This document shows positions 1,610 to 54,200 of a stretch of DNA of 64,000 bases, piece by piece; position 1 is the stretch's first letter, and every line of letters starts with the position of its first letter. Made by a program: the position numbers and the translations under genes. The notes below the pieces were generated by a model, which saw only the letters and a list, made by a program, of their open reading frames with translations, was not told where the DNA came from and did no database searches. Source of the DNA: Ginglymostoma cirratum (lineage: Eukaryota); the NCBI GenBank assembly GCA_024137785.1, contig JAHRHZ010000002.1:9962358-10026357 (forward strand), written 5' to 3'.

Positions 1610-1830
1610 AAAAACTGACATTACTGGAGAAACTCAACACCTGAGACAGCATCTGTAGAGAGAAAGCACAGTTAATGCTTTGGGTCCAGTGACACTCCCA
1701 ACAGAACTCCAAAGGACTCAAAGTGTTAACGTTTTTTCTCTCGATAGATGCTGCCAGAGCTGCGGAGTTCCTTCAGTAATTTCTGTTCTTTTTGTGTTTC
1801 AGATCTCCAGCATTTTGTGGATCTTTGTTT
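1610..1830. mobile_element. Palindromic Penelope-derived mini-element (degenerate)
   Basis: Inverted arms CTGGAGAAACTCAACACCTGAGACAGCATCTG / AGATGCTGCCAGAGCTGCGGAGTTCCTTCAG; same family as 5119-5352. Confidence 0.65.
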
Positions 1831-1885
1831 GAAACAGAAAGAAGTTATTCAAACAGTAACAGAGATATGAGCATTGTCAGCTTAC

Positions 1886-1918
1886 TGTTTGTGCAATTAT
1901 AGTTGCTCTTCACTCCTC
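1886..1918 (-). pseudogene. MHC class I cytoplasmic exon (GGVKSNYNCTN, 33 nt)
   Basis: TTTTACAG acceptor, GTAAGC donor, Tyr-containing short exon typical of class I tails. Confidence 0.7.
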
Positions 1919-2430
1919 CTGTAAAACAAGGAATGTTCAGTGAGTGTCGAGAGACTGTCAGAAAATCAGAGGAAATGCTGGAGACCCTCACTCCCATCTA
2001 GACTCAGCCCCTCATGCCCACATTGCCCTGATCTGCTGACACCCAACACTAAACTGAGAGCCAACCCCAATCTGAAATATCTGACTTTACATTCACAACG
2101 TGAGACTCTTCCACATTATCCTGAGAAGCAGGGTACCATCGCAGACCCTCCTTCACAAACTGAGGCCCTCTCCCCACAGCCTGAGCCATTGCTAACACAG
2201 AGACCGACACCTAAACACAGAGATTCCTTGCTCACCCTCCGAACCCAAGCAAATAACCAAAGACCAAATGATACTGCAGCAGAATTAGGCTATTCAGCCC
2301 ATCGGGGTTACTCCACCATTCAATTGTTGCTGATATATTTCTCAAACCCATTCATCTGCCTTCTCTGCATAACCCTTGATCCCCTTACCAATTAAAAGCC
2401 TACTATCCCTGTGTTAAAGGCACTCAATGA

Positions 2431-2723: not shown

Positions 2724-2729
2724 CAATGA

Positions 2730-3100: not shown

Positions 3101-3184
3101 ACTTTATTCTGGCCATCTCTTTTCCGGCTCTCCAGATCCCTGACCCCCCCAGTGAAGTGCTACCATTCTCTCACAAACTCTTAC

Positions 3185-3289: not shown

Positions 3290-3645
3290 CTGGCAGATAG
3301 AGAGAGAGCAAGAGAGAAAGAGAGAGAGAGAAAATCATAGCGGGTGAGAGAAAAAAAAGGGAGAGAGACAGAGAGGGGGTGTCAGGCTGGGGGGGAAAGA
3401 GACTCAGACAGTGACAGACACAAAGAGAGAGGGGAGGCAGGGAGACAGAGCGCGAGTGCAGAGAGTAAATAAAAATGTGCGTTATACAGGATATACTGCA
3501 TACATTCAGGTCATTTGGTCGAATCAGTAAATAGTCACTTTTATCCACTGATGCTCATTCATCATCTAAATCCGTCATCGACACTTGCTATTCCTTTCTA
3601 ATTTCCACTTGAATACACTTCAACAAGTCAGGCTCCTTGTGGCAG

Positions 3646-3812
3646 AGATAAAAGGTACTGCAGATGCTGGAGAATCCGAGATAACAAGCATGGGGCTGGA
3701 TGAACACAGCAGGTCAAGCAGCATCATAGGAGTAGGAAAACTTGACGTTTCGGGCCTAAACCCTTCATCAGAAATGGAATGCTGTGTTCATCCAGCCCCA
3801 TGCTTGTTATCT
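3646..3812 (-). mobile_element. Penelope-derived mini-element with 16-bp TSD and hammerhead core
   Basis: TSD AGGCTCCTTGTGGCAG at 3630-3645/3813-3828; partial inverted arms. Confidence 0.8.
3744..3771 (-). ncRNA. Minimal hammerhead ribozyme motif
   Basis: Minus strand reads CTGATGA-A-GGG-TTTAGG-CCC-GAAAC-GTC, retaining all catalytic core nucleotides and stem II. Confidence 0.65.
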
Positions 3813-4309
3813 AGGCTCCTTGTGGCAGCAAGCTTCACATTCTCCCCATTCTTTGGCTGGAGAAGTTTCTTTTGAATTCCTTTTGGAATTTTTGGTGACT
3901 GTCTTGTGTTGGTAGTCTTGAGTTTCTTCCCCAAACTCGCTCTGCACCCACTCTATCAAAATGTTTTATTCATTTAAAGATCTCTGTAGATTCACCCTTG
4001 GGGATTTATTATTCCAGAGAGACCCAGCCTGCCAATCCTTTCCTTGATAATGTTCACTCACATATTTCTGACATCGTCATTGTAAATCTTCTCTGCACCC
4101 TCTCCAGTACCTGAATATCCTTTCAACCACATGGTGACCTTAACTGTCTACAATACTCTGCATGGTAGTCTTATCATTTTTCAGGAGAGAATAACAGTCT
4201 GGGACTGTCTGGGATTCCTGCCTCATCTTCTTGATAATGTCTGGTGCTGCTGCCCCTAATAAAAATGGGAATTTAATTCTAAAACTCTGTTTAAATAAAA
4301 CAATATTCA

Positions 4310-5395
4310 TGGTCATGGGAGAAGAGACAGTTTGGTGCTGAGTGAAGCTGTACGGTCCAGAAAAGCTTCAATCGTGGTTGTGATGGCACTTTTGTCTCCC
4401 CCGTCATGACCAGCTGTTTTAGCCTCACCTTTCTGTGCCCACAGTCTGATATTGTCAGCATTGACTGGAAGGGTGTCCAGAAAGCTTACAACCAGAATGG
4501 ACTCTTCCAGGGGAGTCACCACCACTGGGGTATATATCAATGGGAGGCAGCTCAATGCTTCTGCACCACATTAAACCGATATTCCTGGTCCTAAGGTGAG
4601 GATGAATGGCAGCAGGAATGCCAATGCCGGCCACATGCCTCCTCAGAGCGAGAGACACAGTTTACTTAAGGCACGTACTGTTTTCTCTCAATGCCACTGA
4701 AATCACTGCAGGTTCACCGAGTCACCCTTTATTTACCTGTGCACAGTACATGGGCTCTGAGCAGCCAACTCAAAGCCTGTCTTTGGACTGAAGAGACATT
4801 CTGAATCCCTGTTACAATTCTGTTTCCTCTTTCTGACCACCCCGCCATCAGCTGTTTTTGTTTAAATTTAAATAATTACTGTAAAGTTGTTAACAATGAT
4901 TAGGAGTTGAAGTTCTCAATTCTTGTTTGTCTTTTTTTTGACTACAACCAGACTGCACAGGATTAAGGAGATTTTGTAACCGGCTCTTAAAGATTGATGG
5001 GTATAATAATAAATCAAAGGGGGAAGGCAACAGCTAAATATCCTGTTTACATCTGTCAGCCAGGACTCCCTCATTAGCCCAGGTTAACAACCCCAATCAG
5101 GAAACTCATATTCTATGAGGTACAAAAACAGCAGTTGCTGGAAAAGCTCAGCAGGTCTGGAAGCACCTGGGACAAAAAAGTCAGAGTTAACATTTTGGGT
5201 CCGGTGACACTTCCTCAGAACTTCCTCACTGGTCGCGAAACGTTAACTCTGATTTTTTTTCTTCACAGATGCTGCCAGACCTGCTGAGCTGCTCCAGCAA
5301 CTTCTGTTTTGGCTCCTGATTTACAGCATCCACAGTTCTTTCAGTTTTTCTTTCATATTCTATGACATCTACCTGGTCCTGGTTCCAATCACTAC
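4310..5395 (-). mobile_element. LTR-retrotransposon relic (LTR plus adjacent internal sequence) interrupted by younger insertions
   Basis: Minus strand starts TGTAGTGATTGG, has AATAAA near 4730 and ends ...TTTCA followed by TGGC (PBS-like). It is split by the insertion at 5119-5352. Confidence 0.4.
5119..5352. mobile_element. Palindromic Penelope-derived mini-element with 13-bp TSD
   Basis: TSD TCATATTCTATGA at 5106-5118/5353-5365; inverted arms meet at decayed hammerhead cores (..GAAACGTTAAC). Confidence 0.8.
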
Positions 5396-7179: not shown

Positions 7180-7249
7180 CTGAAACAGGAGAGAGGAAGT
7201 GAGAGATCAGAGTAAGACAAAAATGTCAGGATATGAAACCCAGAGCACC

Positions 7250-9526: not shown

Positions 9527-10336
9527 ATGTGGAGTTGCTGGCATTGGACTGGATGGACAAAGTCAGAAGTTACACGACACCAGATTATAGCCCAACAGGT
9601 TTATTTAAAATCACAAGCTTTTGAAGCATTGCTCCTTTGTCAAATGCCTGATGAAGGAGCAGCGGTCTAACAGCTTGTGACTTCAAATAAGCCTGTTAGC
9701 CTGTAATCTAGTGTCACATGACGTTTGACTTTGGCCACTCCAGTACAACATCGGCATCACGACATCACGGCTGCCATTGACACCCCAAACTGTTGACTCA
9801 AAGTGCAGAGGATTGCCAAGACGATTGTGCATATCGACACAGGCATCCAGACACTGCCAAGCAAATGAGGCAATGAAACTACACCATCTACATGGTGAAA
9901 CTACACCAAGAACAAGTAACTGGAGAAATTGGAGTCACTACCAGCAGTAACCAAGCCTCCCGCAGTACCACGGTTGAAATTGACACAACTGCAAGGAAGT
10001 CCATTCTCAATATGTCTGACCGCACCCTTCAACTAGTCAAAATCACAGTTCTTAGCTGAGGGCTCAATTTCTGCCCCACTACCATCAGTCTTGTGGCAGA
10101 CACAGACAAATTCATCAGGTTTATCCCGGGAATTCTTCCACAAACACCGCGCGCACCCCCTCCCCCCCCCAAGATGTCAGCAGCCAGCCCAACGCAACAA
10201 CCAACAAACCGGAACGGTTGACAGATCCACAGTGCAGCAACCGAGGGAGAAAGAGTCGAATTGGACCCGTCCAGAAGGCCACTGGCCTGGGTACGTGCGC
10301 TCAGGAGATGTGTCAACGCCAGGTTCATCAGTCGCC
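9527..10336 (+). mobile_element. Penelope-like element fragment (inverted terminal arms + degenerate ORF N-terminus) inserted in CR1
   Basis: 12-bp TSD CTGAGTATTGTG (9515-9526/10337-10348); inverted arms at ~9527-9770 centred on CCTGATGAAGGAGC; ORF remnants SILNMSDRTL..VLS*GLNFCP, REFF, KESNWTRPEG. Confidence 0.75.
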
Positions 10337-10860: not shown

Positions 10861-11466
10861 AAATAAAAGACCCTGTGAAAGTCATCAAACTCCGGCAGAA
10901 TAGACTCCAAACAAGTTGAGATAACATCCCCCAACCTTATGAACCCCCCCCCAATGACATAAAACATATCTAAAGAGGTCACACTGTCCTCGAAATGTTC
11001 ATTCCGTTATTTCTATCCGCCGCAACTACCACATTCGCTGTGTTCCCACATGTTTCGTGCCTGTATCAGATTTCCAGCAGATAAGTTGGACCGCTGTATA
11101 TCATCAGCTGCCGGAGAGAATGAGCGGAGTTGAAAAGTGAAGCATCAAGAAACAAAGTGGAGGACAGCAAGAGGCCGTTTTGTCCCTCGATACTGTTACA
11201 CAGGGGAAGGTAGAGGCCATTCAGTCCCTCCACACTGTAACACAGGAGGAGGAGCAGGCATTTAGCCCCGTGATAGCGTTAGGCAGGAAGAGATCGTTCA
11301 TTATCTTAAGACTGTTCACGGAATTATTACAGTGCAGGAGGAGATCATTTGGCCCATCGTGCTCGTATCTGGTACACAGAAAATATACGAAGGCTGGTCA
11401 ACTCGTTGAGCTTGTTTCACAGAAGACCATTCGGCCCCTCAAGCCTGCTACATAGGCGGAGACCAT

Positions 11467-12082: not shown

Positions 12083-13459
12083 CCATATTTCATTTTAGTT
12101 TAGAGATGAATGTTTGAAATGCCAAGGCTGTAGAGCGAGTGCTGGAAATGAGATGAGAATGTAATTAGGTACTTGATGACTGGCACAGATATGATGGGCG
12201 AAAGCGTTCTGTGCTTTAACATTTTGACCCGGTCAGCCTTTGACATATGTACCTCATGATGTAGGTCACATGCCTACAACAAACAAGGAACGTCGGAACA
12301 GGAGTAGGCCATTCAGCCCCTCAGATCTCTTCCGCCATTCAGTGACATGGCTGATCTGTGGCCTAACTCCATATACCTGCCTTTGACCCACTTCGCTTAA
12401 TACCTTTGCTTAACAAAAGTTTGTTTGTGCATAATTAACAACTTATCCATCATCCGGTGTCATTTGTGGAAAAGCGTTCCAAACCTCTATCATCGTGATG
12501 TGTAGAAGTGCTTCCTAACATCTCTCCTGAATGGTCTGGCCCTAATTCTCAGATCATGTCCCCAGTTCGAGAATCCCCAACCAGTGAAAATAGTTTCCCT
12601 AACAACCTGGGACAGGCATTTGTACGTGATTGCACGTCAATCCAAACACAGGCCCCTTCAGATTACTTCTCAAGAGTGCGCAGAGGTCCTTCAGCCTTTC
12701 ATGATTGTGAGACAGGAACAAGAGGAGACACCTACAAGTGTCATTGGCAAAGTTAGAATTCAATCTTCATCGCTGGTGTAAAGTGAAGCAGGTATTAGCA
12801 GAAAGTGAATCAGGACTTGGGTAGACAACTGGAGGTAGACGATCCAGAGTTTGGGGAAGATGACAAGAGTGTAGAGGGTGAGTGGTAATTGCAAAAGCAG
12901 GAAGAAAAATCGGGTGGGGGAGAGAGAGTGAAAGGATGAAAATATAATTTCCGACTCCAAAATTACTCAGATATTCACTACCCTTTCTCGTTTTCTGCTT
13001 GGCTCTATCTTTGTCTTTCACTGCCCTCTCTTTCTGCACCCCCTCTCTCACACACACACTGCTTTGTGTCACTACCAGTACCTCTGACTGTCTGCTGTCT
13101 CCCCTTCTTTGTCCTTTCTTCAAATCTCTTCCCACAATACCTCTTCTTCTATCCCTGTCTTGCCTTCTTCGTCTGACTGCGTGTCTCTCTCACTACCTAA
13201 ACAGCTCTCTCACATAGAGGAGTGGGGGATGCTTATAGTGACTATCGTGAATACTTTGTTCAGACCTGAGTTCAAACCGTATCTGCCTCAAAAACATGAA
13301 GACACTTCCTGCAATTTCCATTCATTATGTTCAGAATGACTCCTCCCAGAGAATGATTTCCTGGTTGCTGACTGCCCATTTTGTTTACTTTGCTCTTTCA
13401 GTAACAGACCCTGAAGGGACTGTAGCTAGAGAGAACTAACAAGAGTGAAGGAGTCCCAC

Positions 13460-14068
13460 AATGTCAGAGGGTCAGTACTGAGGCAGTGCTGCACTGTCAG
13501 AGGGTCAGCGCTGAGGGAGTGCCGCACTGTCAGAGGGTCAGTACTGAGGGAGAGCCACACTGTTGGAGGGCCAGTACTGAGGGAATGCCTCAATGTCAGC
13601 AGGTCAGTACTGAGGGAATGCTGAACTGTCAGAGGATCAGTACTGAGGGAGAGCCACACTGTCAGAGGGTTAGTACTGAGGGATGCTGCACTGTCGGAGG
13701 GTCAGTACCAAAGGAGTGCTGCGCTGTCGGTGTGTCAGTACTGAGGAAGTGCCTCACTGCCGGAGGATCAGTACTGAGGGAGTGCTGCACTGTCAGATGG
13801 TCAGTACTGAGGGAATGCCTCAATGTCAGAAGGTCAGTACCAAGGGAGCGCCGAATTATCAGAGGATCAGTACTGAGGGAGCGCCGCACTGTCAGAGGGT
13901 CAGTACTGAGGGAGCGCCGCGCTGTCGGAGGGTTAGTACTGAGGGAGCGCCGCACTGTCAGAGGGTCAGTACTGAGGGAGCGCCGCGCTGTCGGAGGGTT
14001 AGTACTGAGGGAATGCCGCACTGTCGGCGGGCCGGTACTGAAGGAGGGCCGCGCTGTTGGAGGGTTTA
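13460..14068. repeat. 33-bp minisatellite (ACTGTCAGAGGGTCAGTACTGAGGGAGTGCCGC family), ~18 diverged copies
   Basis: Direct tandem periodicity. Confidence 0.95.
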
Positions 14069-22743: not shown

Positions 22744-22782
<39 letters not shown>

Positions 22783-31700: not shown

Positions 31701-34700
31701 AACCTCTTCAATCTATCCTCATCACTGCAGCGGGACCAATCTCGGAAACTGCTTCTGCACTCTCTCTCTTTCTCTCTTTAGTGTGTTCACAACCTTCCTG
31801 TAATGTGATGGCCAGACTGCACAAGAGCTGAGAGTCCCTGGTACAGGAATAATAAAAACGGCTGTATGCAGGTGCAACAAGTGATCAGGAAAGGGAAATA
31901 AATGTTTGTGGCACGGAGGGGCATCGCATATTGAAGTAAGGATATACTGCCTCAAGTCATTACTCAATTCACATCTGTCCAGTTTTGGTCTCCTTACCTC
32001 TGGAAGGATACGTTACACTAGAGGCTTGCTTGTTTGTTAATGTGATGCCATTCACTCCCTCCACCACTGAGTAGAATCTACTATCTATAAGATGCACGGC
32101 AGAAATTCATCAAAGATCCTTAGACAGCACTTTCCAAACCTACAACTACTTCCATCCAGAAGGACAAGGGCAGCAGGTACATGGAAATGCCACCACCTTC
32201 AAGTTCCCCTCCAAGACACTCACCACCCTGACTTGGAAATATATTGCCGTTCCTTCACAGTCGCTGGGTCCAAATCCTGGAATTCCTTCCCTTGCGGCAT
32301 TGTGGGTCAACCCACAGCAGGGGGGCTGCAGCGGTTCAAGAATGCACCTTCTCAAGGGGGGGGCAACTAGGGACAGGCAATAAATGCTGGGCCCAGCCAG
32401 AGACGCTCATATCCCACAAAAATGAATAAAAACAAAAGCAGCTCAGATAGGGGTTTTGCTCAACCCAATCCTAGGTTTCGGGGTATGGAAGGAAGGCGCA
32501 GTTATCCCATGAAGAAAGGTTAATCTTGTATTCATTGGGGTTTAGAAGAATCAGAGGCAATCTTACAGAAATATAAAAATCTTCCAGGAGAGGGTACAAG
32601 GAAGGGTAGACTGTTTAAATATATAGAAACTCTTACTTTGAGGACACAGATGAGGAGAAATTTGTTCTCTCACAGGGTTGTAGCTTTCAGATCTCACTTC
32701 CCTGGAGAGTGGTAGATGTGAAGTGATTAAATATTCTTAAGGCAGAAGTAGATAGCTCTTTAGAAGGTACAAGTAGTGGAAGACTTTTCCCCTCACACAC
32801 ATCAAAACTACAACGCAAGAAACAGAGTTGGAAAAGGGGATTCCAAATCACACAGAATGAAAAGACGGTCTTTTTTAATTAATCCATGAGACAATAGGGG
32901 TCATTGGCTGCACCAGCATTCACTGCCCATTCTTAATCACGCAGAGGGAAAGTGAGAATCAACCACATTGGCTGTGGGTCTGGAATCACACACGTAGGAC
33001 CAGGTAAGAATAGCGGTTTCCTTTCCTAAAGAATATTCGTGAACCAAATGGGATTTTCCAACAATCTGCAATGGATTCATCATCATCATTACCCTCTTAA
33101 TTCCAGATTTTTATTGAACTCAAATTCCATCATCTGCCATGGCGGGATTCGAACCCAGGTCCCCAGAATCTTATCCGGGTCTCTGGGTTAACAGTGCAGC
33201 GACAGGCCATCACCTCCCCTTATCGTTGCTTGGGCCACTGTTGCCACAAAGGTGCCAAAAGAGCAGTTGACTGTCGATCTTTGGTCTCCAGCCACACCAT
33301 TATACTCTGATTGGTCCATGCGTTGCCAAGGGAATGTGACCAATCAGGGAGTCCACTCGCCTCGCTGGGCGGTGACGATCGACAGTTAACTGCTTCCGCC
33401 CCACCCCCCCACCACCCCCTCCCCACACCCTGCATCGCTGTGGTAATGATGGCTCAACCAATCAGCAGATCTTCTCAAGCCGTATGAAATTTTTTCAACC
33501 CTGTCCCTCACCCATGCAGCTGACCCACTCGGCCAGCTGGTCGATCCTGAGCCGGAGCTTCTCGAAGACGTCGGCGGTGCCGGACATGGCCTGATGGGAA
33601 GACGTCACACGCTCCTGGAGCTGGAGCTCCATCTCCTCGCTGGTGCTGCTGGCCAACATGGCCAGGAACGGCAGCGCACTCTCACTCTGGCCCTCCCTGC
33701 ACGCTGTAGGGGGGAGAAAAAAAACAGCAAGGCAGCAGTCACCATCACACAGAAGTCTCACAGACCCCACCACAGCAACAACAATGCGCAGTTAGAGCGA
33801 ACGGGGCACGGAGTAAAACATTCCAAGGTCTTTCACATCAGCGCAAACTGCACAGGGAAAGTGAGTTGCAGACAAATAAGGAGACCTGCTCAGAAGTAAA
33901 GAGGTTTACTTTAAAGGAGCATCTTAAAAGAACAGAGAAAACAAGGGACGCAAACAGACCTTGCTGAAAAAGCTCAACGGGTGTGGCAGCATCTGTGAAG
34001 CAAAAGTCAGAGTTAACGTTTCGGATTTGGTGACCCTTCCCCTGACCTGGTGCTCTGAGGAAGGGCCACTGGACCCGAAACGTTAACTCTGATTTTTCTT
34101 CACAGACGCTGCCAGACCTGCTGAGCTTTTTCAGCAACTTCTGCTTTTGCTCCTGATTTACAGCATCCACAGTTCTTTTGGTTTTTATTTGACAGAACGA
34201 AGTGTGTTGAGATGGAGGACAAAAACAGGGATGGGGAGGCACAAGGAGGGGGAGAAGAGAGAAGTGGGGAGAGGGAGGGGCAGAGCGTGAGAGAGGGAGA
34301 GAGAGAGACAGACGAGGTACAAGTGAGCAAGGGAGAGTTAAAACGTGAGCTTGAGGGGAGTGGGGAACGGTGGAGGGACAGATGGAGCAAGAGAGACAGA
34401 CAGGCAGAGTGAGAGCACCAGTCAGTGCGATGGGGAGTATAATCAACAGAGAAGGAGGGGCTGTGGAGCGAGATAGAGAGTGAAAGAGATGGCGAGAGAG
34501 TGAGACACACAGACAGACACACACACACAGACATGGGGTGAAAACAAAACAGATCGAGAGAGAGAGAGACTGGAGGAATGGATATTGTGGGGGTGATTCC
34601 ATGGTTGCAGGTAAGTGAGGACACAGATGAGGGTTGACTTGCTGTGCTGAGGACAGGTCAGGATCCCTGGCCCACCGGGGCGGTTTACCTTTCTCTCTCT

Positions 34701-37700
34701 CCTCGCGGCGGTCCCGCTCCTGGTTACTGTCGGAATCAGGCTCTGGGTCAGACACCACCAACATCTTCTTCTCAGACAACACATCGCGGCTTTCCTGCTC
34801 CTGTTCCAGATCCCAACGCTGCAGGATAATCCGCACGTTCTCATCAAACTGTGGGAGCAAGACCCAGGCTCAGTAACACTGGCTGACCTTTCACCACCCG
34901 GGTCACACCCAGATCGACCCTCAGTGTTTACCTAACCCCGTGCTGTCCCTGTGCTGGGTGCGTTTGATTTCCATCGTGGTTAACAGAGAATACGTTTTGT
35001 GGTTTTTTTAAAAATAATTTCCTATAAACCTGTTCAGAAGTAGAACACAGAACATAGAACAGTACAGCACAGTACAGGCCCTTCGGCCCACGATGTTGTG
35101 CCAAACTTCTACTCTAAACCTAAGGTCTATCTAACCTCCACCCCTGCCTTATACTATCATCCACATTCCTATCTAATAGCCACTTAAAATGTTATTACAT
35201 ATCGCTGGAACAGTTGGGATTTGAACCTGGGCCTCCTGACTCAGAGGTTGGGACATTACCACTGCTGCTGGGTGTGTTTGATGGGGAATAGCGTATAGGA
35301 AGCTTAATGCTGTGCTGTCTCGGTGCTCTGAGCGTGTGAATGGGGACAGAGTAGAAGTAGCTTTACTCCATATCTAATGCTGTGCTGTTCCTGTCCTGCG
35401 AATTTGCGATGGGAACGGTGTGGACGCAGCTTTCTGCCATATCTAACACTGTGCTATCTATGTCCTGCGAGCAATGAATAGGGAAAACGTAGTTGGAGCT
35501 TTGTGTCTAGCCCTGGGAAGTCTGTGTTGAGACAGTAGAGGGAGGGCAGTGCCTAGGCTGTACCTGGCACCAGTAACGGTTCAGAATGAGAAGGGTGGCG
35601 TCATCTGTTGCTTGCCGTTTCACCAGCTTCTCGATCTGCTCCCTCAGCTCGTCCTCGATGGTCTGTCGCTGATCGATCACCTCGGCAAGCTTCCGGTTTT
35701 TGTTCTGGAGAGTCCGGATGTCGAGTTCCTCCTGGGGGTGGGAAAGAGGGAAAGGGGGTCAGGTACGGTCTATAAGCTTGCTGCTGACCTGAGTGCCTGG
35801 AGCCTATTCGGCAGCACAGCAGAGTGATATGGGCGCGACTACTTTGAGCACGCACAGACACACGTACATATACGCGCGCACACACATGTACATATACACA
35901 CACGTGTGCACACGCACAGACACACACACATATACGCACACAGAAAGAGCAGCAAGATGGGGACAAATGGGTAACTCAAGTTATTCAGTGATTTAAAAGA
36001 CGTGGGAGTCGAAAACAAAGTCACTACATAGAAACATACAATCCCTGCAGTGTGGGAGCAGCCCATTGAGTCCATGCTAACCTTCCAAAGAGATTCCCAC
36101 CCACACCTACCTTATCTCCTGTAACCCTGCATTTCCCACAGCTAACCCACCCAGCCTGCAAGTCCCTGGACACTGTGGGGCAATTTAGCATGGCCAATCC
36201 AACTAACCCGCACATCTTTGGGAGGAAACCGGAGCACCCGGAGGAAACCCACGCAGACACGGGGAGAATGCATAAACTCCACACAGACAGTTGCCTGGGG
36301 CTGGAATCGAACCGGTGTCCCTGGTGCTGTGAGGCAGCAGTGCTAACCACTGAGCCGCCCCGATTGCGTATGTGACGGAGGTGGTGAGCCACCCTCGGAG
36401 TCATATGGCACGGAAACAGACCATCTAGTCCAAGCTGACCAAGTTTCCCAAACCAAACGAGTCCCATTTGCCTGCATTTGGCCCATATCTCTCTATACCT
36501 TTCAAGTTCATGGATCTATCCAAATGTCTCTGAAATGTTGCACCTGTACCTGCATCTAACTCTTTCCCCGAGCAGATCATCTCGCACACGAACAACCCTC
36601 TCTGTGGAAAAACTGTCCCTCAGGTCCCCTCTAAATATTTCTCCTCAACTCAAAAATGTGCCCCCTCACCCCCACCAGTTCTGAACTCCTCCAAACCACC
36701 AAAAAGACCTTTGCTGGTGACTACCTTACCTATGGCCCTCGTGATTTTACAAACCTCTATAAAGATCACTTGTTAATGCTCCAGCAAAGACAAAATCCTA
36801 TCCAGCCTCTGACTAATACCCAGAACCTCCAGGCCTGGCAACGTCCTGGTAAATCTTCTATGAGCCCTCTCAAATTTAATTACCTCCTTCCTATAACAGG
36901 GCAAACGGAATTGAGGAAGGGTCGCTGGACCCGAAACGTTAACTCTGATTTTTTTTTCTCCACAGATGCTGCCAGACCAGCTGAGTTTTTCCAGCAACTT
37001 CTGTTTTTGCTCAAGAATTGAGGAAGATTTACTTTCAGGTTGAAAGTGCAGAGGGAGCTATACCCCATATCTAACATCATGCCGTACTTGTCCTGGGAGC
37101 AAGTGACTTTTAAGGCCAGTTCAGAAGGCAGGAATAGTTTAACCATGTAACTGAGAAACTGGGCTCCCGCGTAAAGAGGACTGACCTGGTAAAGAGGAGC
37201 AGGGTTTACCCTTTCAGCGACAGTAACGAACCAGAAAAGGTTAATACAATAATCCAGTTGCAGTAAGATAAAACTTTTATTCCCAAATTACTGAATTGAA
37301 TTTCAAATCCTTCAGGAGCCGGGGTGGGGACCAAGATTCTGCCACAGGGATCACTAACCTGAGCCTCTGGGTCACCTTAGGACGTCACCATATCTCATCC
37401 CTCATCGAGTACCAATGTCTGACCAGCCAACTCAGGCAGAATGGGCTTTTGAGCTTTAGTGACAGAAATTGCAAAGCTCAGAGATGCAGAAGGATCTTGG
37501 TGAGTTATTGCATTTTTGCAAAAAGGGTTAAATCTCAGATACACTATTAGGAAAGCTAATACCATATCATTTATCTCAAGGGGAAGTGAATACAAAAGTC
37601 AGCTGGTTATGCTTCAGTTTATACAGGGCACTGGTGAGACCAGATCTGGAGTTATGTCGCTCTAGTCCTGCCAGACAATAGGACTGGTCTTTCATTCAAA

Positions 37701-42216: not shown

Positions 42217-45200
42217 GTATGGTATCCCGAAAGGTGGGAAAAGGAGGGGAGTCTGCATCTCCTTCATTTAGCAAACAAAGGTGGGCTGTGTTAATTTTAA
42301 AAACTAGCTCTATTGTCATGTTCACTCATGTGAAAAGCTTACAGTTGTCACTTCATGATGCTGTCTTGGGTGCCAAGGTACTTGTGTACACAGCCTTAAG
42401 TACAAGGGTGGCTCAGTGGTTAGCACTGCTGCCTCACAGCCCTAGGGAATGAGGTTTGATTCCACCCTCGGGTGACTGTCTGTGTGGAATTTGCCCATTC
42501 TCCCTGTCTGCATGGGTTTCCTCCCACGGTCCAAAGATGTGCAGGCTAGGTGGATTGGCCATGCTAAATTGCCCCAAAATGTTCAGGGAGGTGTAGATTA
42601 GGTGGGTTATAGGGATGGGTCTGGGTGGAATGCTCTGAGATTGGGTGTGGACTTGTTGGGCCAAAGGGCTTGTTTCCACACTGTATGGATTTTATGATAC
42701 AAATTCTCAGGAGAAAATTACTTAAGAAAAATAAAGAAAGGATAAAGTCTAGCAATAAGCTTCTGAAGTCAGGGTTCAGAATAAGTCCTTTCATTACAGA
42801 CAGCACCAAGCTTCACCTTGAGGCTGGGAGTTCAAGTAACATGGTATCTCAGTGACTAGCACAGCTGTCTCTCAGTGCCAGGGACCTGGGTGCAATTCCA
42901 GCATTGGGTGACTGTCCATGTGGAGTTTCCACGTTCTGTGTCTGTGTGTGTTTCCTCTGGGTGCTTGAGTTTACTCCCACAGTTCAAGAATGTGTAGATT
43001 GGGGACGTTTAGCATGGTCAATTCACCTAAAGTGCCCAGGGTACTGCAGGTTGAAAGAGTTAGTATGGGCAATGTGGATAGGGTGAAATCCTGATTGGAG
43101 GGTTAGTGAAGACTTGATGGGCTGAATGGCCTCTCTGCACTGCAGAGATGCTGATGAAAGGATTCTGTTTTATCAGAGGGATTTTGATTGTTCTTCAACT
43201 TAACAATTTACCATATCTAGTCTAGCATCCAGTTATAACCTCTTCTGAAGAAGGGTCCAGACCCAAACTGTCAGCTTTCCTGCTCCTCTGCTGCTTGGCC
43301 TGCTGTGTTCATCCAGATCTACACCTTGTTTTTCCAGTTATAACCTGTTTCCTTTCTGCCTTCCCCTGCAGGATAAAGGAGCGGTGCTCTTAAACTCTCT
43401 CAACCAGAGGGTGGTCTCTTTAAAAGATGTGGTGCAGAAACAAGGGCTGGAGATTGCACATGTCAAGGTAAGTTAGTCTGATCACACTATGCTCAAAGGT
43501 TTGCAACACTTTCTTCAGTCCAGTTCTGGTTGCAATCCTATAGGAAGGATATTAAACTGGAGAGGTTCAGAAGAGACTTACAAAGATGTGTCTGGGTTTG
43601 AGTTATAAGGAGAAGCTGGATAGGCTGGGATGTTTCCCACTGGAGCATAGGAGGTTGATGTGATTTTTGAGGACTATAAAATCATGAGGGGTATGGATTA
43701 GTTAATGTCAAGTGTCTTTTCATTAGTGTGGGAGACTTCAATATGGTGGGGGGGGGGGCTGTGTGTGTGTGTGTTTTTTAAGGTGAGGAGAAAGATTAAG
43801 GTATTGGGGTTGGGCAAACTTTTTCCAATGTGGAAGGAACTTCCAGAGGAAATGGTGGATGTGGGTACAATTACAATGTTTAAAGACATTTGGATAAGTA
43901 CATAAATAGGAAAATTTGGAGGGACTAGGTTAGTTTAGGATTATGTTCAGAATGGACTAGTTAGACTGAAGGGTTTGTTAACATGCGGTATGACTCTATG
44001 TAGTTAATTTTTTTTAATGGTTTTTAATTGGATCACAGGTTGTCACTTGTCCCTAATGTTCGTGAACCAAGTGTTTTGCTAGGCCCTCTTGGTGGATAGT
44101 TAAGAGTCTATCATGTTGCTTTGGGTTGAGTCACATAGACCAGAATAAGTGTAGACAGGTTTCCATCCTGAAAAGACATTTGTGGGCAAAATAGGTTTTT
44201 ACAACTGTCATTAGTTTTGTGGTCACTGCGTTACATTCTGGATTTATTTTAATTTGATTTGAGCTCCTGCCCAGAGAGTTGGCCTAGGCCTATGGTGTAT
44301 TAGTAAAGCAATATCTTTTTATTGTTGTTACTTTAGCAAAATAACAGCGGCTACCTATTGAGAGGATGGGCAGAGGGGACAGGGCTGCCTTGTTAGTAAG
44401 GAATGACATTAAATTGTTAGCAAAGTGGTCTCTGGTTGGAAGACATAAATCTGTTGTAGAGTAGAGGTGTAAAGGGAAAAACTCCCTAATGGGAGTTACG
44501 TACAGGTCTCCTAGCAGCTGTCAAAATGTGGGTCAGAAAATTAAATTGGGAGACATAAAAGGCATATCAGAAAAGCATGATTACAATAATCATGGGGGAT
44601 TTCAATGTGCTCGTGAACCTGGAAAATCAGGTTGTTAATGGATCCCAAGGAAAGGGATTTTGAAATGTTGTTTTTGGAGCTGCTTGTGATAGAGACCACT
44701 CGGGAACAGGCAATTCTGGATTGTTGATGTCTAATCAGGGAGCTTTAGAGTAAAGGAATCTCCTAGAGTAGTGACCATGATATGATAGCTTCTCCCCACT
44801 CAAACCGCAGGATGCATACTAGAGTGAGAGGTAATGGTATTACAATTGAGTAAAGGTGTCTAAAAGATACAAGGGAGGAGCTGGCCAGAGTTGATTTTGG
44901 AAGGGGAGCCTAGCAGGTATGACAGTGAAGCAGCAATGGCAGGAGTTTCTGGGGTTAATTTGGGGTCTTTTTCAGGATGGCAGCCTCATGGAGTTCTGCA
45001 GGGGTCAGTGGGACCACACATTTGTTATACATTGCAATCTGGATGAAATGTTTGCAGGTGACATTGGTCATGGGTAGAGTTGAGTTGGAGAGGCTACAGA
45101 AGGACTGGGAGAAGCTAGTAGAGAGAAAAGAAGCAAATCCAATACAGTCTTGGAAAGTGAGGGGTTATGTACTTTGGTAGGAAGAATAGAGGCATTGACT

Positions 45201-48200
45201 AGTCTGTAATGGGGAAAGACTTTTGGCAGTCTGAAGCACAAAGGGACTTTGGAGTCTTAGGTCAAGATTCTCTTGGTGAACATACAGGTTCAGTTGGTGG
45301 TTAGTAAGACATGTGTGGTGTTTGCATTCATTTCAAGAGGGCTAGAATGCATGTACAAGGAAGTACTGCTGAGGCTGTATATCTGGCTCTGGTCAGACTG
45401 CATTTGGATTATTGAGTAGCTTTGGACCCAGTATCTAAAGATGGATGTGCTGGTGTTGGAAGGTCCCAGAGGAGGTTTACAATGATTCTGGGGCTGAAGG
45501 ATTTATCATGAGTGGTTGGTGACGGAGTCTGCACTCAATGGCATTTAGAAGGATGAAGAGGGAGCTGACTGAAACATGAGGAAAACTGAGACCAAGATAG
45601 TGTGGATGTGGAAATGTTGTTTCCACTATTAGGAGAGACTAGGATGCAAGGGCATGGTGTCAGAGTGAAGGGCTGACCCTTTAGAACGGAAGAGGAGAAA
45701 TTTCTTCCACCACTAGTGGATCTTTGGAACTTGCTACTGCAGAAGACTCTGGAGGCCAGTCATGGAGTACATTTTCAGACAGATCCTTGATTGGTAAGGG
45801 GATCAAAGGTTACAGGGAGAAGTCAGGAAAATGGGGTAAAGAAACATTCACCATGATTGAATGGCAGAGCATTCTCAATGGACCAAATGGCTTAAGCTTG
45901 TTCCCATGTGGTCTTGTACACTTTGTGCTGAGATGTCCCAGAATTGTAAAAGATGGATAAAGGTAGGTTTTCCTGCAATGGGTCTGGCACACTGCATGTG
46001 ATCGTGGACGGAATGGATGACCAATTATTTGCTGTGCTATTGTGATGAAGGACTGTTGGTGAGAGCATTAGGGCAATTACATGCTCTTCAATATTGCTGA
46101 TGCACTTTTAAACATCCAGAAAGGGCCTCAATTCAATAACTTATCCATAATAGAGTTAGCTTCATTGTCATGTACTCAAATGAGTATGATGAAAAGGTTA
46201 CAAATTGTCACTTACATCACCATCTCAGGTTCGGATTTTTCAGTACCAGTTCTTAGAGAAAAAAGTCCAGCATTACAGGTCATAGAAACAAATGAGAAAA
46301 TAGAGGAAGAAAAGATCAGAACCACTGTCCTTCCAACCCAGTTATAAAGTGATCCCTCTGACATTGTCATCCCCCTCAAATACACTGCTGGTGCTGATTT
46401 TTGGTCTGAAGTTTGTGGAATGAGCCTTGAACTGATTTGAACAATTGGGCCCCCAACACCACAAGGTGTGCATTTTCCAAATGTTCGCCTTGGCCAATAG
46501 GGCTTTTTAAAAAAAAAAAATATTTTTAATGCCTAGCTTGCTTGAATGCAAACAATGGATTCTCTTAACAATCCTGTCTGAATGCCAAAACAATCCCCAT
46601 GTTTTTAATTCCTGCTCTTCACCTCCAGGATATGGGCTGCAGTCTGATCTGCCACATTGCTCAGCAGTTTGCTGACCTGCACAGATTCCTCAATGAACAT
46701 GAACAACAGCTCCTGGAGAAGCTGGAGGCTCATGTGGAAGGCCACCTGGCCGGAATGGAAGGAAACCTTACAAAGCTACGGGCGATACTCTTCACCATTG
46801 AGCAGGACATCTTGAGTATTGAGGCCAAATTGGATCAAGGTGACTTGGCATCTCTTAAGGTATGTTCCTGATCTTTACTACCTGCCCCCTCCCCACACCT
46901 GTTGATTCTGGTTTCCGGTGATTTGTTACCCCCTCCAATATCCCCAATAGCACGGGGATTGTGAACATCCGCAACCACCAAAAACTGCAGGTTTTTGTAA
47001 AATCTGTTGCTGATGTCTGAGGGTTTCACTGAGTTGTTATTCTTATCTCAGTCACCTTTTTTTTTTTGCCCCTATTTCTCTCTGCTGAATTTCATCTTGA
47101 CTGCAGCATCTGCATCGTTAGAATCACAGCTTCCCTAGAGTGTGGAAGCAGGCCACTCAGCCCATCAAGTCCACACTGACCTTCTGAAGAGCGTCCCACC
47201 CAGACCCATTCCCTGTCATGGTGCAATCTCCATGGTCTACACACCCCTAGACATCATGGCCACACTAAATTGCCCAGTCTATCCAACGTGCACATATTTG
47301 GACTGTGGGAGGAAACTGGAGCACCTGGAGGAAACCCACGCTGACATGGGGAGAACGTGCCAACTGCATACAGTTACCTGAAGGTGGAATCAAACCCAGG
47401 CTGCTGATGCTGTGAGGCAGCAGTGCTAATCAGTGAGCCACCCAAGAAGTTGCTTCTGGGCTCTGCCTCACCATTTTGATTTTGACTTGTTAGTGAAGGG
47501 TATGGACTTCTACCCCTGCCCCCACCCCTCAATCTCATCAATTCTTTATTTAAAAAATTACAGCGAGTGTGGAAACTGGTCACTGGCAAATACTTGCAGT
47601 TCTGACCAGCAGCAAGATGAATGAGGTGTGACTTGTGTTAATTTTTTTGAGAATCAGGATAGTCTGGCACATTTTGGAGGCTATTGAGGCTGTGCTGCCT
47701 TCTGTCCCCGTCCCAAACCTGTTTCTCTACCCAGTGTGATGTTACATGTCAGCTGTATGTATGTGCTGAAGACTAGTGGATTGTGCTAACAGCTTTGATT
47801 ATTCACAAGGAGGAAAGTATGGACCATCTCCAACATGCCCAACCACTTTGTACTTGCAAAATCTGCACCAGTGTCGAATGTTGGATGTGAGTCTACAATT
47901 GAGACAACACTTGCTAAATAATACTGGCTGTCAGTGTAATTCTTTATGCAAACAGCTTGGGATTGTAGTTGATCTGTGTGGTGCACCTGCATGTACTGTA
48001 AGCTACATATAAAGGCCTGCTTTTGCATTTGTTTTAACTCAGTAAAATAGGTGCTGACCGTTTCTCTCTGGCTCATCTCAAGGTATTGCTGTGAACAATC
48101 TGTCAACCTGCCTAATTAGCATTGAAACAAAGCCTGGCATAGCTAAATGTTAACTGCTACATTCACTACTGCCATACTCTACCAATTAGTCCACTAGCTA

Positions 48201-51200
48201 CCCAAAATGGTCCTGATGTGACACATTTCCTTTTTGCAAGACTTAAAGCTTTGTATCACCAAACCACTTTGAATAGTCAAATGGAATGACCAGAATATTT
48301 GTGGCCTATTCTTAATACTTCAATAGCTATTCAAAAAGAACTTAGCACAATATTTTGCCAAAATTAGTAAGCAAAGTGTTGATCTGTTGTCTGGTGCAGA
48401 GTGAATGTGGAATTGTTGAAAGTGCGCTGTTTCAAGATGTTTGTGTTCTGCAGAAATACACTGACAAACTAACCTTTTTTTTTTTCTCTTTTGTTTCTGT
48501 CTTCAAGGAAGTTAGTTCTTGGAGGGACAGGTACGCATTCTTAGTTCACCATTGCTTGGGTAAACATTCCAGGATCTGAATCCTGTTGTACTAACTCATT
48601 TGCTACAGCATTGGCTTTTGTTGCAGAGAATTGAAGTTAGACATGAGGAAATCTTACAACAATTGTACATGGCTTTTGGTGTCACAACGCATAGAATATT
48701 ATGCAAAGCTTTAATCTCCTACCAGTGTCCGTTTACTTAAGTACAGTGTAACAAAAGTTCACTTGACTCCCTGACTTGCATTCTCATTTGAAGCAACTAT
48801 TTTTTAAATGTAGTAAAGCAAGCTTATCTCCGCCCTCAATTAGGGTCTATGACCAGGTTAGATGCTAAAAGGCAGTCTATTCTTGGATGTAGTGTCAAGA
48901 ACTAGGTTTCATTGTTCTAGGCTAAGTGGATGAGTTTTTGGACTAGGATGAGAAATATCTGGACTTAAAGCTTTGTTTGCATGGTGTTCTGATACTCGGT
49001 CATTCTGAATGTTTGCAGATGGGAAAGGAGTACAAAATTTGGTGAGGTAGATGATCAGCTGCAGTTTAATTCACTGTTTTTGGATGTTGTTGACTGGGTT
49101 GGTTAGAGTTTAAATTTTAAGGGAGGTGATATTTCCAATTGAGACTTGATGTGGTTCAGTCTTTAGAAATGAATCAAAACATGATTGATTAAAGAACTAT
49201 TGCAATCAAACCTCATCCAGACAAGTTACAAAGCTCATTAACCTTTTTTAACTGCTTCCAAAGAGAACTTCTGGGCCAAATGTTTCAATTCTTTCTCTGC
49301 TGTTGAAAGTGGTGAGCTGCCTTGAATCAGTTTTCCGGTAGGTGTACATACACCCACCATACTTTTACAGAGCAAGTGTTAGCTTAAAAAGGTAATTTGT
49401 TAAATTAACAACTAACCAGGGCATGGAGGGGGCTGAATTCACAGATTGGTGAAATAGCAGTCTCTGGCCAGATTGACCTTGCTGGTAAGCTATTGACAAT
49501 GGGATTTCTATTGGGATCAAATGTGACTGGCTGCATGTCTTTGACAACAGGAGTAGATTCCAGGTGCTCCCAAAGGACTCGGTGGTTGCAACAATATTTC
49601 TCCTGTTTAGAAATCTTCCATTTGTAGTGATGGTGTCTTCCAGTTCTTTATCCAAGTCCAAAACCCTCCATTTGAGGGAAACTGAGAAAAGCTGCTGCTC
49701 AAGGCAGATTTGACTGTTCAAATTCCTCAGCTTTTATTACACTTATAAATTAGATCCTGCAATCTAAGTTTTGTAGACAAATGATGCTAGCCACGCAGCT
49801 CGTTCTCAGCAACATTTCTGCTGTGGCCAATATTCTTTGTCTTTTGGAGGATGTTCATTTTGTTTTTTCTAAATTGCTCCAAAAACACCACCTATTATAA
49901 CATTGGATAGGCTGAAAGGGGTGTATAGCCCTAGTCTTGTGTTCTTCTGTCCTTGTATTTTGTAACACATCATCCTGTTAGCAGGCTTTCTGAAGAGATA
50001 CCCACTGTTCTGCCTGGGAATGTGTGCCTGGGAACATACAAAGGCCCATTACAGTACAAACTATGGAAGGAAATGAAGAATATCATCCATCCAGGTAAAT
50101 GAATGTATTGCTTCCACCTGTAATTCTGTATCTAGGTTAATGGGAGTAATAAACTGTCTGCCCTGTCCTTATAACAAAAGCACAAATTGTTGGAAAAGCT
50201 CAGTAGCTCTGGCAGTATCAATAGAGATATCAGTTAATGTTGCAGGTCAGGTGATCCTTCCTCCAAATAATGAGCTCTGAGGGAGAGTTGCTTCGCCTGA
50301 ACTGCAAACTGATTTCTCTACAGATGCTGCCAGACCTACTAAGCTTTTCCAACAGATTTTTTTTTTTTGTTTGGCTTCCAGCATTTGGAGTTGTTTGAGT
50401 GTTTACTGGACTTACAAATGATTCTTTCACTATATTATCTGCCCTGTTAGGGACAGTACCACTGTGCCTCATCTCTGGACTTGAGTTCTGGGTTCAACAC
50501 CCACCCACGCCACATCTGAGAGGGTTTTTCAAAACAGAATCTTTGTATCCACGGAATTCACTTGGTAGAGTCAGTTGTTTCGCACAAGCTGTTGGTGTTT
50601 TGCACTTAGCTTGGTGATGTGGATGAGGGCATATGATTGGGAATATTTCCTTGAAGGTTGGATGAGTCAAATGCTAACATGAGTTAGCTAAGCTGACAGT
50701 GCCTTCTACGTGGGAGAATGGCAGCAACTTTACAAAACTTAAATGTTTAATTTTTTTTGTATAGTCCTCACTTTTTTCAACTTGTGCTGAGGCAGTTTGT
50801 TGACACTGACACTAGTTTGTCATTAAGTTGTAACTAATAAATTACAAGGGCATTCTTTTTCCCATTAGGGAACCAGTGTGGAACCGTTGCTATATTGAAT
50901 AGGAAAGAATGCTGACTTTTGTTTAAACTGTAGTTATCACTTTATCCCAAGCATGTCCTACTTGAGGACAGAAGGACCATTTTGTTATTTCAAATTAACT
51001 AACTGGTTTGCATATTTGGCAGTGTTGATTACCAGACCAGCATGGCATCAGTTTTAGTTGCATCCAGTGGAATGATCTGAGATGCTCTTGATAGATTCAC
51101 TGTCACCAATCTGCCCTGATGGTGTTTAATCTAAAGCTATTGATAACTAGCAGTAAAGGATGCCCACATGCTCTCTAGCAGGTGAGAGAACAGGTCTTGG

Positions 51201-54200
51201 TGAGATTAGGTTTATTACCTGGACTCCTGTAACTTCAGTTATGGTTCTTAACTGCTGTAAATCCAAGGATACAGCTGAGTAACTATTAGTGCCGCTGAAA
51301 ATCTGGTACACCAGATGTTGGCTCTTCCCATGAACAGCCCTTCGTTGTTGAAGGGGCAGAGATAATCTAATACTGTCAGTCAACCCTCTTCCATGCCATG
51401 TCTTTATAGCATGTAGCCAAGCTGACCTTTTTTGGTATGGGTGATCCAGCAAATTGAATTGGAGCTGCAGTAATCAAATTGTTGTCATGCAGAACTTTAG
51501 CAGTGTAACTAACAATTGTAGCAACAGACTGATCAGTGGTCTTTTCAGTGAGTGGGAATGGACTGTTAGATGAAGCCAGGGAGGTTTTGAATTTGACAGC
51601 TGGTCTTGTAGCATCGGAGTCATATAGCACAGAAACAGACCGTTTGATCTGGCAAGTGCCAGGCGTTGTATTCTGGATGCAATTAGATTGGTCAAGCTCC
51701 CAGCCTTGAAGCAAAACCCACTTCATTCATATGATAGTTAGAATACAGTAAATAGGTAAGAAATTAGAAAAATGTAACTCTATGGGAAAACTGAACAGAA
51801 TAATAGATTATGTAACTACTAAACACCTGCAGTAATATTGTAACATTCCACAAATGCATCTCTGACAAAGGCAAATTCTGTGAAATAGGTTGTCCCTCAT
51901 GCAATTCTGCAGACCAGGAGAAAAGATATCAAAAGCAAACAGTATTGGGGAGAGATACTGAAGCTTCAAAACCACAACTGCTACTGGAAAAACTAAAACA
52001 AAAAGTCTTGGTTCTGTAGGAGGCTGTTTCTATTCAACACTTGGGTTTTGTTTTAAAATAGAACTCTCAATCTGTTTACGTTATTAGCTGAATATACTAA
52101 CTGGCACCTTTTTCCAATTAAAACCAGACAAAATAGACTTCCAAGCCATAGTGTCATACTTCCATATCACCTTCCAAATGCACAATCACTTCCATCTAGA
52201 AGGACCAGGGCAGCAGATGTATGGGGATGCAACCATCTTCAAGTTCCCCTCCAAGCCACTCACCACCTGATTTGGAAATGTATTGCTGTTCCTTCACTGT
52301 CACTGGGCCAAAATCCTGTAATTCCCTCCCTAGTGGTATTGTGGGTCAATCCACAGCAGGTGGACTGCAGCAGTTCAAGAAGGCAGCTCACCACCACCTT
52401 CTCCAGGGCAGTTAGGGACAAGCAGTAAGTACTGGCCGGCCAGCCAGCGATGCTCGTGTCCCACAAATGAATTTTTAAAAGAAAACTGAACCCACTTCTA
52501 CCACTTCATCTGGAAGTTCATTCCATAAGAAATGTTTGCTTTCTGAACAGTCGGCACTCAGATTTGAGTAATGCTTTTTTTTTTTGACTGGAGACTTCTT
52601 TTTAAAATATCCTCTGAACATGTCTCCCAAAATTGGCTAGCATCCTCCCCAGAGAGGAAACTAGTGTAACCATTTGACTTGTCCACCCCACCTGGAGTCC
52701 CAGTTGAACTAGAAGATGCTTCACCCCAGCACAGGAGCAATTACAAGCCAGCAAGTAGCAGGAGTAGGCCATTCTGTCCCTCTAGACTGCTTGGCCAGCC
52801 AACAAAGTGGCTGATCTGATTACAACTCCAAATCTGCATTTGTACCAACTCTTGATGACATTTCACCCCCCCCCCCCACCAGCTTAAATGATTGGTTTTT
52901 ACTTCTGATTGGGGGCAATAATATCAAGTACTGTACTTCCATCTTTGCTCTCTCAGAAGCCTAAAGACCCATGACCCTCCTGAAAGAAAAACAAATTGCC
53001 ATTTCAAATGAACAGCTGCCTGTTTTCCCTCTTGATCTCCTGTTTTGAGGGAAAGTGAGGGGGGAAACATCCTATTTACATTTTCCTATCTATCCCCTCC
53101 AGGATCTTGTATGTTTTTATTAACTAAATTATCCTGCTGCTAATGCAAACAGATACGAGCTCAGCCTGTCCAACTTAATACAGCCCTGACTCCCTTTCCA
53201 AACCACCTCCATTCCAGCTATTAGTCAAGCAAATTTTCTTTAACTTTCCTCAATACAATTAAATCCTTTTTTCAAGGTGACCAATTCCCTTTGGGATGCC
53301 TTTATTCAACTGGGGTGACATGGTGGCAGTGGTTAGCACTGCTGCCTCTGTAAGGCATATGGGTTCAATTCCAGCCTTGGGTGACTGTGCAAACTCCATA
53401 TGTTCTTCCCATATATGCACAAGTTTCCTCCAGGTGCTCCAGCTTCATCCCACAGCCCAAATATGTGCTGGTTAGGTGGATGGGCCATGGGGAAACACAG
53501 GGTTACAGGGATAGGGTGGGTGGAGGTTCTCTGGGATGCTGTTTAGAAGGTTGGTACAGACTCGATGGGCCAAAATGGTCTCTTTCTGTGAAACTGCCTC
53601 CAAAACACTCTGATATTATAATCTAGATTCCAACAACTTGCTAGATAACAAGGTGTGGAGCTGGATGAACACAGCAGGCCAAGCAGCAGCATAGGAGCAC
53701 GAAAGCTTGACGGTTTGGGTGGGGTGGTGGGGGGGGTGGTCTAGGCCTGAAACGTCAAGCTTTCCTGCTCCTATGATGCTGCTTGGCCCGCTGTGTTCAT
53801 CCAACTCCACACCTTGTTATCCTGGATTCTCCAGCATCTGCAGTACCTATTATCTCCAACAACTTGGTTTTTTAAAAAAGATTTGCATAATTTTTCTTCC
53901 ACTTCTTGAATTACCTTAAATCTGGATCCACTTGTTCTCTACCCTATCATAAGTGGCAATATTTTCTCTTTGACCTGTCCTGACCACTGGTGACTTTGAA
54001 TACTTCAGTTATATTGCCTTTCTACCTTCTAAAACCTTTCCCAATGTCTGATCTGTCTTTATAACTGAAATTCCCCATCCTGTACACCACCTTTGAAAAC
54101 ATCTTCATGCCCTTCTATCGTTGCTAAAGGAGAGAATTCAATTCTCAATATACTCCAGTTGTGGTCAAGCTACTGTCTAACTTTCAAATAAATCCTTGCT

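Follow-up and report, generated by a model that had tools for sequence, protein, structure and literature searches.

Nine short insertions with a hammerhead-ribozyme motif lie within a stretch of 64,000 nucleotides from Ginglymostoma cirratum (assembly GCA_024137785.1, contig JAHRHZ010000002.1, positions 9,962,358 to 10,026,357 of the forward strand; hereafter the window). They fall into three families, A, B and C, and each insertion of family A or B is the terminal module (the hammerhead with about 100 further nucleotides) of long Penelope-like elements (PLEs) that encode a reverse transcriptase (RT) and a GIY-YIG endonuclease. We call the insertions stubs: they are probably dead-end run-off copies of these abundant elements, made anew at each insertion. 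A reading of the window from its sequence alone had described nine insertions in about three subfamilies as non-autonomous, ribozyme-delimited retroelements; BLAST and profile hidden Markov model searches recovered all nine at the same starts.

A census was made in three sample blocks of 300 kb with 869,100 readable bases (three further blocks had no readable sequence). It found 202 insertions that carry a terminal arm, which amounts to one every 4.3 kb; the window, with nine insertions per 64 kb, agrees with the earlier estimate of roughly one per 7 kb, and the density is higher still in the sample blocks. At a genome size of 4.36 Gb, a rough extrapolation from the three blocks gives about 1 million copies genome-wide.

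Coding parents and ribozyme of the stubs

Walking upstream from a family A stub locus led to the C-terminus of the endonuclease, and coding-region loci continue into the same terminal module in 26 of 29 cases for family A and in 27 of 29 for family B. One family B copy has an open frame of 906 amino acids with a Pfam match to RVT_1 (E 5.8e-8), and the nearest Atlas clusters to its C-terminal 170 amino acids are GIY-YIG (0.96; Pfam share 18-21% of members). A Pfam search with the parent open reading frame (ORF) gave no GIY-YIG match, and a sequence search of solved structures with the parent protein returned only two weak, unrelated matches. Ahead of the endonuclease lies a CX4CX2C linker (CNRRKCYTC in B copies), which is absent from the single reading inspected of a fourth, Poseidon-like family, D. 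According to the accessible text of PMC8557442 (all comparisons with published work refer to the accessible parts of the papers), a CX2-5CxxC linker between RT and GIY-YIG marks the Neptune and Nematis clades; by the linker alone the parents would be Neptune-type, the same linker being found in Nematis. They have in common with Neptune-type PLEs the RT, the CX4CX2C linker, the C-terminal GIY-YIG (in B) and the hammerhead in the terminal repeat (PMC8557442).

At 8 of 30 B loci and 3 of 30 A loci the module continues directly into where the ORF begins, hence a 5' copy of the module exists. The same module also follows the ORF, giving pseudo-long terminal repeats (pLTRs) in tandem at both ORF ends in A and B. 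Family C has 29 loci with the same module architecture, and no coding parent was recovered for it; the link to RT and GIY-YIG is established for A and B only. Full-length coding copies are present in this genome. The Penelope-like origin, the inverted terminal arm and the retroelement-type duplications that had been proposed are borne out. The A and B stubs are the ends of copies coding for RT and GIY-YIG, and the arms match the termini of RT-coding elements, not the terminal inverted repeats of DNA transposons. Downstream of the hammerhead, A and B have an upstream ORF of 28-30 codons that shares the frame of the main ORF, with a single stop between the two (L265:547-700 and L300:335-455, oriented). 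The longer of the two outer ends of the stubs described below lies at or near the stop of this upstream ORF in both families, which could point to read-through or translational control.

As a minimal, loop-less type I hammerhead the ribozyme motif is genuine: the sample blocks contain 93 hammerhead-type cores against 31 in five shuffles together, and 29 complete motifs (stem I, stem II and palindromic stem III) against none in the same five shuffles; stems I and II vary in sequence, with pairing kept in all of families A, B, C and D. An Rfam scan gave no match to a hammerhead model at E up to 1, and its matches to microRNA precursors were rejected as chance hairpins below the gathering score. 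The hammerheads that the sequence-only reading had placed at the centres of the insertions are real at the level of the family, but most cores in the window are broken: 2 of 15 profile-detected arms have an intact core (3646 on the minus and 33950 on the plus strand), seven of the nine elements have none, and family C reads GAAAG-CTT instead of GAAAC-GTH. With the minimal type I hammerheads of metazoan PLEs (PMC4209133) the motif shares the short helix I, the bulged base before helix II and the palindromic positions 15.2-16.2; mostly dispersed single motifs ascribed to truncated PLEs and several sequence families per genome are further points of likeness. That paper differs in proposing self-scission and circular templates, whereas the ends mapped here show no sign of a cleaved-RNA template.

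Read-through RNA of the palindrome at 33950 is predicted to fold into a single long hairpin of -133 kcal/mol, in which stems I and II have a predicted probability of 0; for stem I the same value was obtained in the folded monomer ensembles. A palindrome has one sense hammerhead per strand, which is predicted to be locked inside the hairpin. The stubs hold the whole, uncleaved ribozyme with the scissile bond internal, and thus they were not copied from cleaved RNA, in keeping with the normal insertion of ribozyme mutants described in PMC11167929.

Ends, arms and target duplications

All positions are given relative to the scissile bond (H17 = 0). Among 205 arms of A and B (arms with an inner end at or near a run of N were left out), 76 have their inner end at -38 to -29, which corresponds to 0.059 ends per nucleotide at risk. 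The interval -3 to +3 holds six (0.0046 per nucleotide, with 0.0030 and 0.0047 in the neighbouring bins), and beyond -100 the rate is 0.002 per nucleotide or less. The 92 best-preserved arms have 39 inner ends at -38 to -29 and one at -3 to +3, and all loci pooled give the same single peak, at -36 to -30; a class of ends at the cleavage site was sought in the arm census and not found. The earlier proposal that self-cleavage defines the mobilised RNA, together with the suggestion to map the ends relative to the cleavage triplet, can thus be answered: neither end of the element lies at the scissile bond, and because the inner ends pile up 29-38 nucleotides upstream of it, self-cleavage does not delimit the copies.

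In long copies, position -62 is occupied by a TATA-like hexamer (26 of 41 in A, 57 of 70 in B), and an initiator-like YYANWYY motif follows with its A at -33 in A and at -31 in B. With these two motifs, the pile-up lies where a transcription start would be expected, and run-off at the 5' end of the RNA would be its likeliest cause. A spliced 5' exon was rejected as a cause: upstream of -31 the family A loci lack a common linker, and in family B that place is without an AG. RNA data consisted of two raw runs of the species, a polyA run with a fragmented library and a second run of which only 13 reads mapped. The reads show heavy passenger transcription in both directions, and coverage in the polyA run is about 10,000-fold per direction over the terminal module and about 300-fold at the start of the ORF. 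In 11 of the 15 best-supported joints in the RNA reads one end is at -34 to -27, these being genomic junctions within passenger transcripts. Read ends at the cleavage site are not visible in this fragmented library.

Outer ends are bimodal, at about +64 to +77 and +93 to +103 in A and B and at +47 to +59 and +86 to +90 in C, with about 30 nucleotides between the two sites. Adjacent arms are head-to-head in 31 cases and tail-to-tail in one. In the unselected sample, 26 of 27 palindromes combine a long with a short arm; the single arms (56 long, 76 short) would predict this for only about half of them. In all data, which are partly selected for a long arm, the number is 83 of 89. Hidden short inverted arms account for only 7 of 105 short single arms. 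Within one palindrome the arms agree in their alleles (mismatch 0.089 versus 0.476 shuffled in B, 0.300 versus 0.463 in A); the old family C arms are not homogenised (0.164 versus 0.169 random). Junction geometry is distinct in 63 of 64 short palindromes, and the single repeated junction belongs to a pair of palindromes with different flanks. Short and long B copies have the same allele sets (0.036 versus 0.039). Junctions that are almost all unique and alleles in common with long copies mean that no separate non-autonomous family, as had been proposed, is shown: in their sequence the stubs run parallel to the termini of long coding elements. Head-to-head pairs of mixed families (5 of 94) were considered as products of two RNAs and not used: they have no convincing duplication, and several look like nested insertions.

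Target duplications, 11-18 bp long, were scored in 31 of 177 elements versus 0 of 177 shifted controls, and they are AT-rich (67% AT versus 59% background). Runs of exactly 400 N stand between the arms in 14 of 33 family B head-to-head pairs and in none of A or C; they are probably assembly gaps at young, near-perfect palindromes, in which case young palindromes are undercounted. At three loci (L141, L157, L160) a stub of one family sits in the centre or at the 5' edge of a stub from a different one, a hint that stub junctions are preferred insertion targets. Family D (L301-L330), which is absent from the window, has an AC-rich downstream region, outer ends at about +41 and +80 and mostly long copies; just upstream of its ribozyme, a 9-nucleotide stretch matches the complement of the CUGA box at 7 of 9 positions and might inactivate the ribozyme.

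The stubs in the window and their surroundings

The stubs of the window and their target duplications are listed in Table 1. Seven are head-to-head palindromes, in line with the description of most insertions as palindromes; exact flanking duplications of at least 12 bp were found at five of the nine, one fewer than had been claimed. The insertion at 9527 is an exception to the rule of one long and one short arm. At 36920 the last 8 nucleotides of the left duplication are also the start of the ribozyme core (junction microhomology). A lax profile scan of the window gave one extra faint candidate at 10965-11083 (family A match, E 0.0095), possibly a tenth and very old stub.

Table 1. Stubs, intact hammerhead cores and target duplications in the window
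Feature	Position	Strand	Details
Family A stub, old and diverged, head-to-head	1610..1830		Short arm 1610-1708 minus; arm with tail, from 1710, plus; no intact core in either; no duplication found
Family B stub, head-to-head	3646..3812	minus	Long arm 3646-3777 minus (-33 to +99); short inverted arm of about 40 nucleotides, about 3775-3812
Intact minimal hammerhead core	3744..3771	minus	CUGAUGA, stem II, GAAA, CGUC; scissile bond internal to the element
Exact 16-bp target duplication	left 3630..3645, right 3813-3828	plus	Flanks the stub at 3646
Family A stub, head-to-head	5119..5352		Minus: short arm to 5222 (-33); plus: long arm from 5226 (-18 to +101); no intact core
Exact 13-bp target duplication	left 5106..5118, right 5353-5365	plus	Flanks the stub at 5119
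Family C stub, head-to-head	9527..9770		Both arms tailed; arms abut at 9646/9647; cores broken; no duplication found
Family A stub, head-to-head	33950..34190		Short arm minus, long arm 34052-34190 plus (-32 to +103); no duplication found
Intact minimal hammerhead core	34055..34084	plus	CUGAGGA, stem II, GAAA, CGUU
Family A single-arm stub	36920..37014	plus	Terminates at the short outer end
Exact 12-bp target duplication	left 36908..36919, right 37015-37026	plus	Flanks the stub at 36920
Family B single-arm stub	43242..43332	plus	-30 to +69; GAAA box mutated
Exact 14-bp target duplication	left 43228..43241, right 43333-43346	plus	Flanks the stub at 43242
Family A stub, old, head-to-head	50175..50405		Short arm minus, long arm from 50267 plus; cores broken; degenerate duplication only, 9/12 match judged by eye (50163-50174 / 50406-50417)
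Family B stub, head-to-head	53641..53854		Short arm to 53719, 17-nucleotide G-rich linker, long arm from 53737; both arms without the CUGAUGA box
Exact 12-bp target duplication	left 53629..53640, right 53855-53866	plus	Flanks the stub at 53641

Among the other features of the window is a PRY-SPRY (B30.2) exon at 56684-57289 on the plus strand (Pfam E 1e-23 and 9.5e-21), which is likely the last exon of a TRIM-type gene. Coiled-coil-like coding stretches lie on the minus strand at 24250-24500 and 26536-27444, the second without a Pfam match; we take them to resemble a BRE1/RNF40-type ligase. One 33-bp minisatellite forms two arrays, at 13446-14065 (18.8 copies) and 40334-41360 (31.1 copies), and a 69-bp minisatellite family is found at 19366, 28862, 35336 and 37033. 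A dispersed repeat of about 300 bp, similar to a short interspersed element (SINE), occurs in both orientations (2432-2717, 25213-25390, 36143-36360, 42406-43013, 47134-47443, 53402-53488, 54394-54674, 62534-62783) and presumably resembles the HE1 SINE of sharks. Two further hairpin-forming palindromes, at 22678-22808 and 26178-26351, are unrelated to families A-D.

Origin of the stubs and relation to known elements

Run-off copying is the likely origin of the stubs and could have proceeded as follows. The copied stretch would be the first 100-135 nucleotides of the element RNA, and this RNA would start about 30 nucleotides behind the TATA-like box, where the 5' strand of hammerhead stem I lies. 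The RT may start internally just downstream of the hammerhead, by analogy with the anole element in vitro, and, when it uses the 5' copy of the module, would run off the end of the RNA. A protein dimer would nick both target strands 11-18 nucleotides apart and prime one cDNA per start site; the two cDNA ends, joined head to head, would give a palindrome with a one-sided tail, and the capture of only one cDNA would give a single arm. Hammerhead cleavage would play no part in stub formation, and the stubs, without the TATA-like box, would be promoterless. In vitro, cutting and extension affect both strands of the target, the tail is bounded by two internal start sites, and the substrate is uncleaved RNA (PMC11167929); together with the arm statistics, this favours two primed cDNAs over fold-back from a fixed first strand, and fresh assembly over short master copies.

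Several observations speak against this account or are neutral to it. The polyA run shows no pile-up of molecule starts or ends, a weak test with a fragmented library and with the family A ends outside its scope. Of 11 copies with a 5' module, no more than 2 begin at -31. Families A and B are related and are thus not two independent cases; in family C the TATA-like box is present in one of three copies with a TATAAG variant in a second, and in another inspection in none of three, and the few short arms of family D are scattered from -12 to -93, with only two near 30 nucleotides behind the TATA box. In D. virilis, transcription starts about 120 nucleotides upstream of helix I (PMC2377424 with PMC4209133). 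Duplications are rarer in well-preserved single arms (14 of 45) than in palindromes (12 of 17), and some single arms may therefore have another origin, for example target deletion or later loss of an arm. In the random blocks alone, the short arm reaches further 5' more often than the long one (15 versus 7, 3 ties). The start sites used in vitro are not strand-specific (PMC11167929), which does not account for the rule of one arm of each kind.

A variant in which the stubs are likewise by-products of coding PLEs, and the ribozyme domain sets the pile-up, either by 5'-to-3' trimming to a folded or protein-bound hammerhead or through a barrier to the RT just upstream of it, in place of a transcription start, appears unlikely to us. 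It would account for the fact that in A, B and C the pile-up falls on the 5' strand of stem I, for the fact that most copies with a 5' module begin further upstream than -31, and for the lack of a visible start in the RNA reads, weak as that test is. However, a stop caused by folding should lie on the 3' side of the fold (+4), a place with a rate of just 0.003 per nucleotide, the TATA-like and initiator-like motifs of A and B stand at textbook spacing, and stem I has a predicted probability of 0 in monomer ensembles. We give still less credence to an origin of the palindromes in which a single strand folds back or primes itself, perhaps on an antisense template, an idea put forward for rotifer elements. 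Self-priming has been proposed (PMC3846280), the arms have subfamily alleles in common and many junctions have short overlaps; yet single arms, too, terminate most often at the short outer end (76 of 132), which so behaves as a start site, and fold-back from a fixed first strand predicts that one class of arm always reaches further 5', whereas over 70 palindromes each class did so 29 times, with 12 ties.

The original proposal of a non-autonomous, retrozyme- or SINE-like mini-retroelement, whose RNA is cut out by the hammerhead and re-inserted, is improbable, and its cleavage part is already largely refuted by the lack of a peak of element ends at the scissile bond. The very high copy number, the predominance of short arms (164 of 205 A and B arms), the one palindrome pair with a common junction and the slightly closer neighbours among short A copies (short-to-short 0.107 versus short-to-long 0.121) would suit it, and truncated copies that retain the TATA-like box could be non-coding sources in trans. 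Against it stand the otherwise distinct junctions, the B alleles common to short and long copies, the scarcity of intact cores in the window, the single sense hammerhead per palindrome strand with its predicted locking in a hairpin, and the lack of tandem or permuted monomers among the tandem repeats of the window. Identity with retrozymes was rejected: none of the 11 tandem-repeat rows of the window falls on these elements, and adjacent arms are head-to-head. That the stubs are DNA transposons similar to miniature inverted-repeat transposable elements, with long terminal inverted repeats, has a negligible likelihood: the palindromic shape and the flanking duplications would fit, but the outermost 30-35 nucleotides are one-sided in 26 of 27 palindromes, most copies are single-armed, the duplication length is not fixed but ranges over 11-18 bp, and the link of the arms to RT-coding parents, whose ends they form, refutes this reading.

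Every structural feature of the stubs is already described for endonuclease-bearing PLEs in the accessible text of PMC3846280 and PMC8557442. Insertions of Pen2a_Av and others (PMC3846280; scheme in PMC8557442) also combine 5' truncation, a head-to-head inverted arm, a tail on one arm and a target duplication: they have an inverted pLTR with a one-sided tail of 30-40 bp, and the rotifer element has, as here, a TATA and initiator-like pair in its pLTR (PMC3846280). They differ from the stubs, which contain only the terminal module (90-240 bp) and make up about 80% of the arms, have longer duplications (mostly 14-17 bp) and inner ends that pile up at one place. The Poseidon element PAc of Anolis carolinensis (PMC11167929) resembles the elements studied here in its two internal RT starts downstream of the hammerhead that bound the tail, the uncleaved RNA template, the cutting and extension of both target strands and the AT-rich targets. 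The ORF of PAc starts inside the hammerhead, whereas the main ORF here lies about 150 nucleotides downstream, behind the short in-frame upstream ORF; palindromic stubs or a fixed 5' end are not described for PAc in the accessible part of that paper. Non-LTR retrozymes (bioRxiv 10.64898/2026.07.22.740005) are likewise non-coding, hammerhead-bearing and related to pLTRs, and occur in vertebrates including a cartilaginous fish; they consist of head-to-tail tandem units with a hammerhead in each, in contrast to the dispersed single or head-to-head inserts with long duplications found here. A literature search, with subscription papers, Repbase, Dfam and supplements mostly outside its reach, found no account of such stubs, of a fixed 5' end or of the rule of one long and one short arm.

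As a tentative extension, the hammerhead could be the first fold of a capped mRNA. Cutting at this very first fold would remove the cap, and the ribozyme may act as a dimer- or protein-dependent self-decapping switch that limits expression instead of serving to release the mobile RNA; an asymmetric dimer would use one start site per target strand, and the promoterless stub of 100-240 bp would be the commonest product, about a million of which would record the mechanism. As an element class the stubs are ordinary. How the inverted ends of PLEs are formed and what the hammerhead does are stated as open questions in the accessible parts of PMC8557442 and PMC11167929, and for models of both processes the stubs provide two genomic rules: one long plus one short arm, and 5' ends about 30 nucleotides upstream of the cut site. 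Should the same density extend over the whole genome, the stubs would also be a large source of hairpin RNA in host transcripts.

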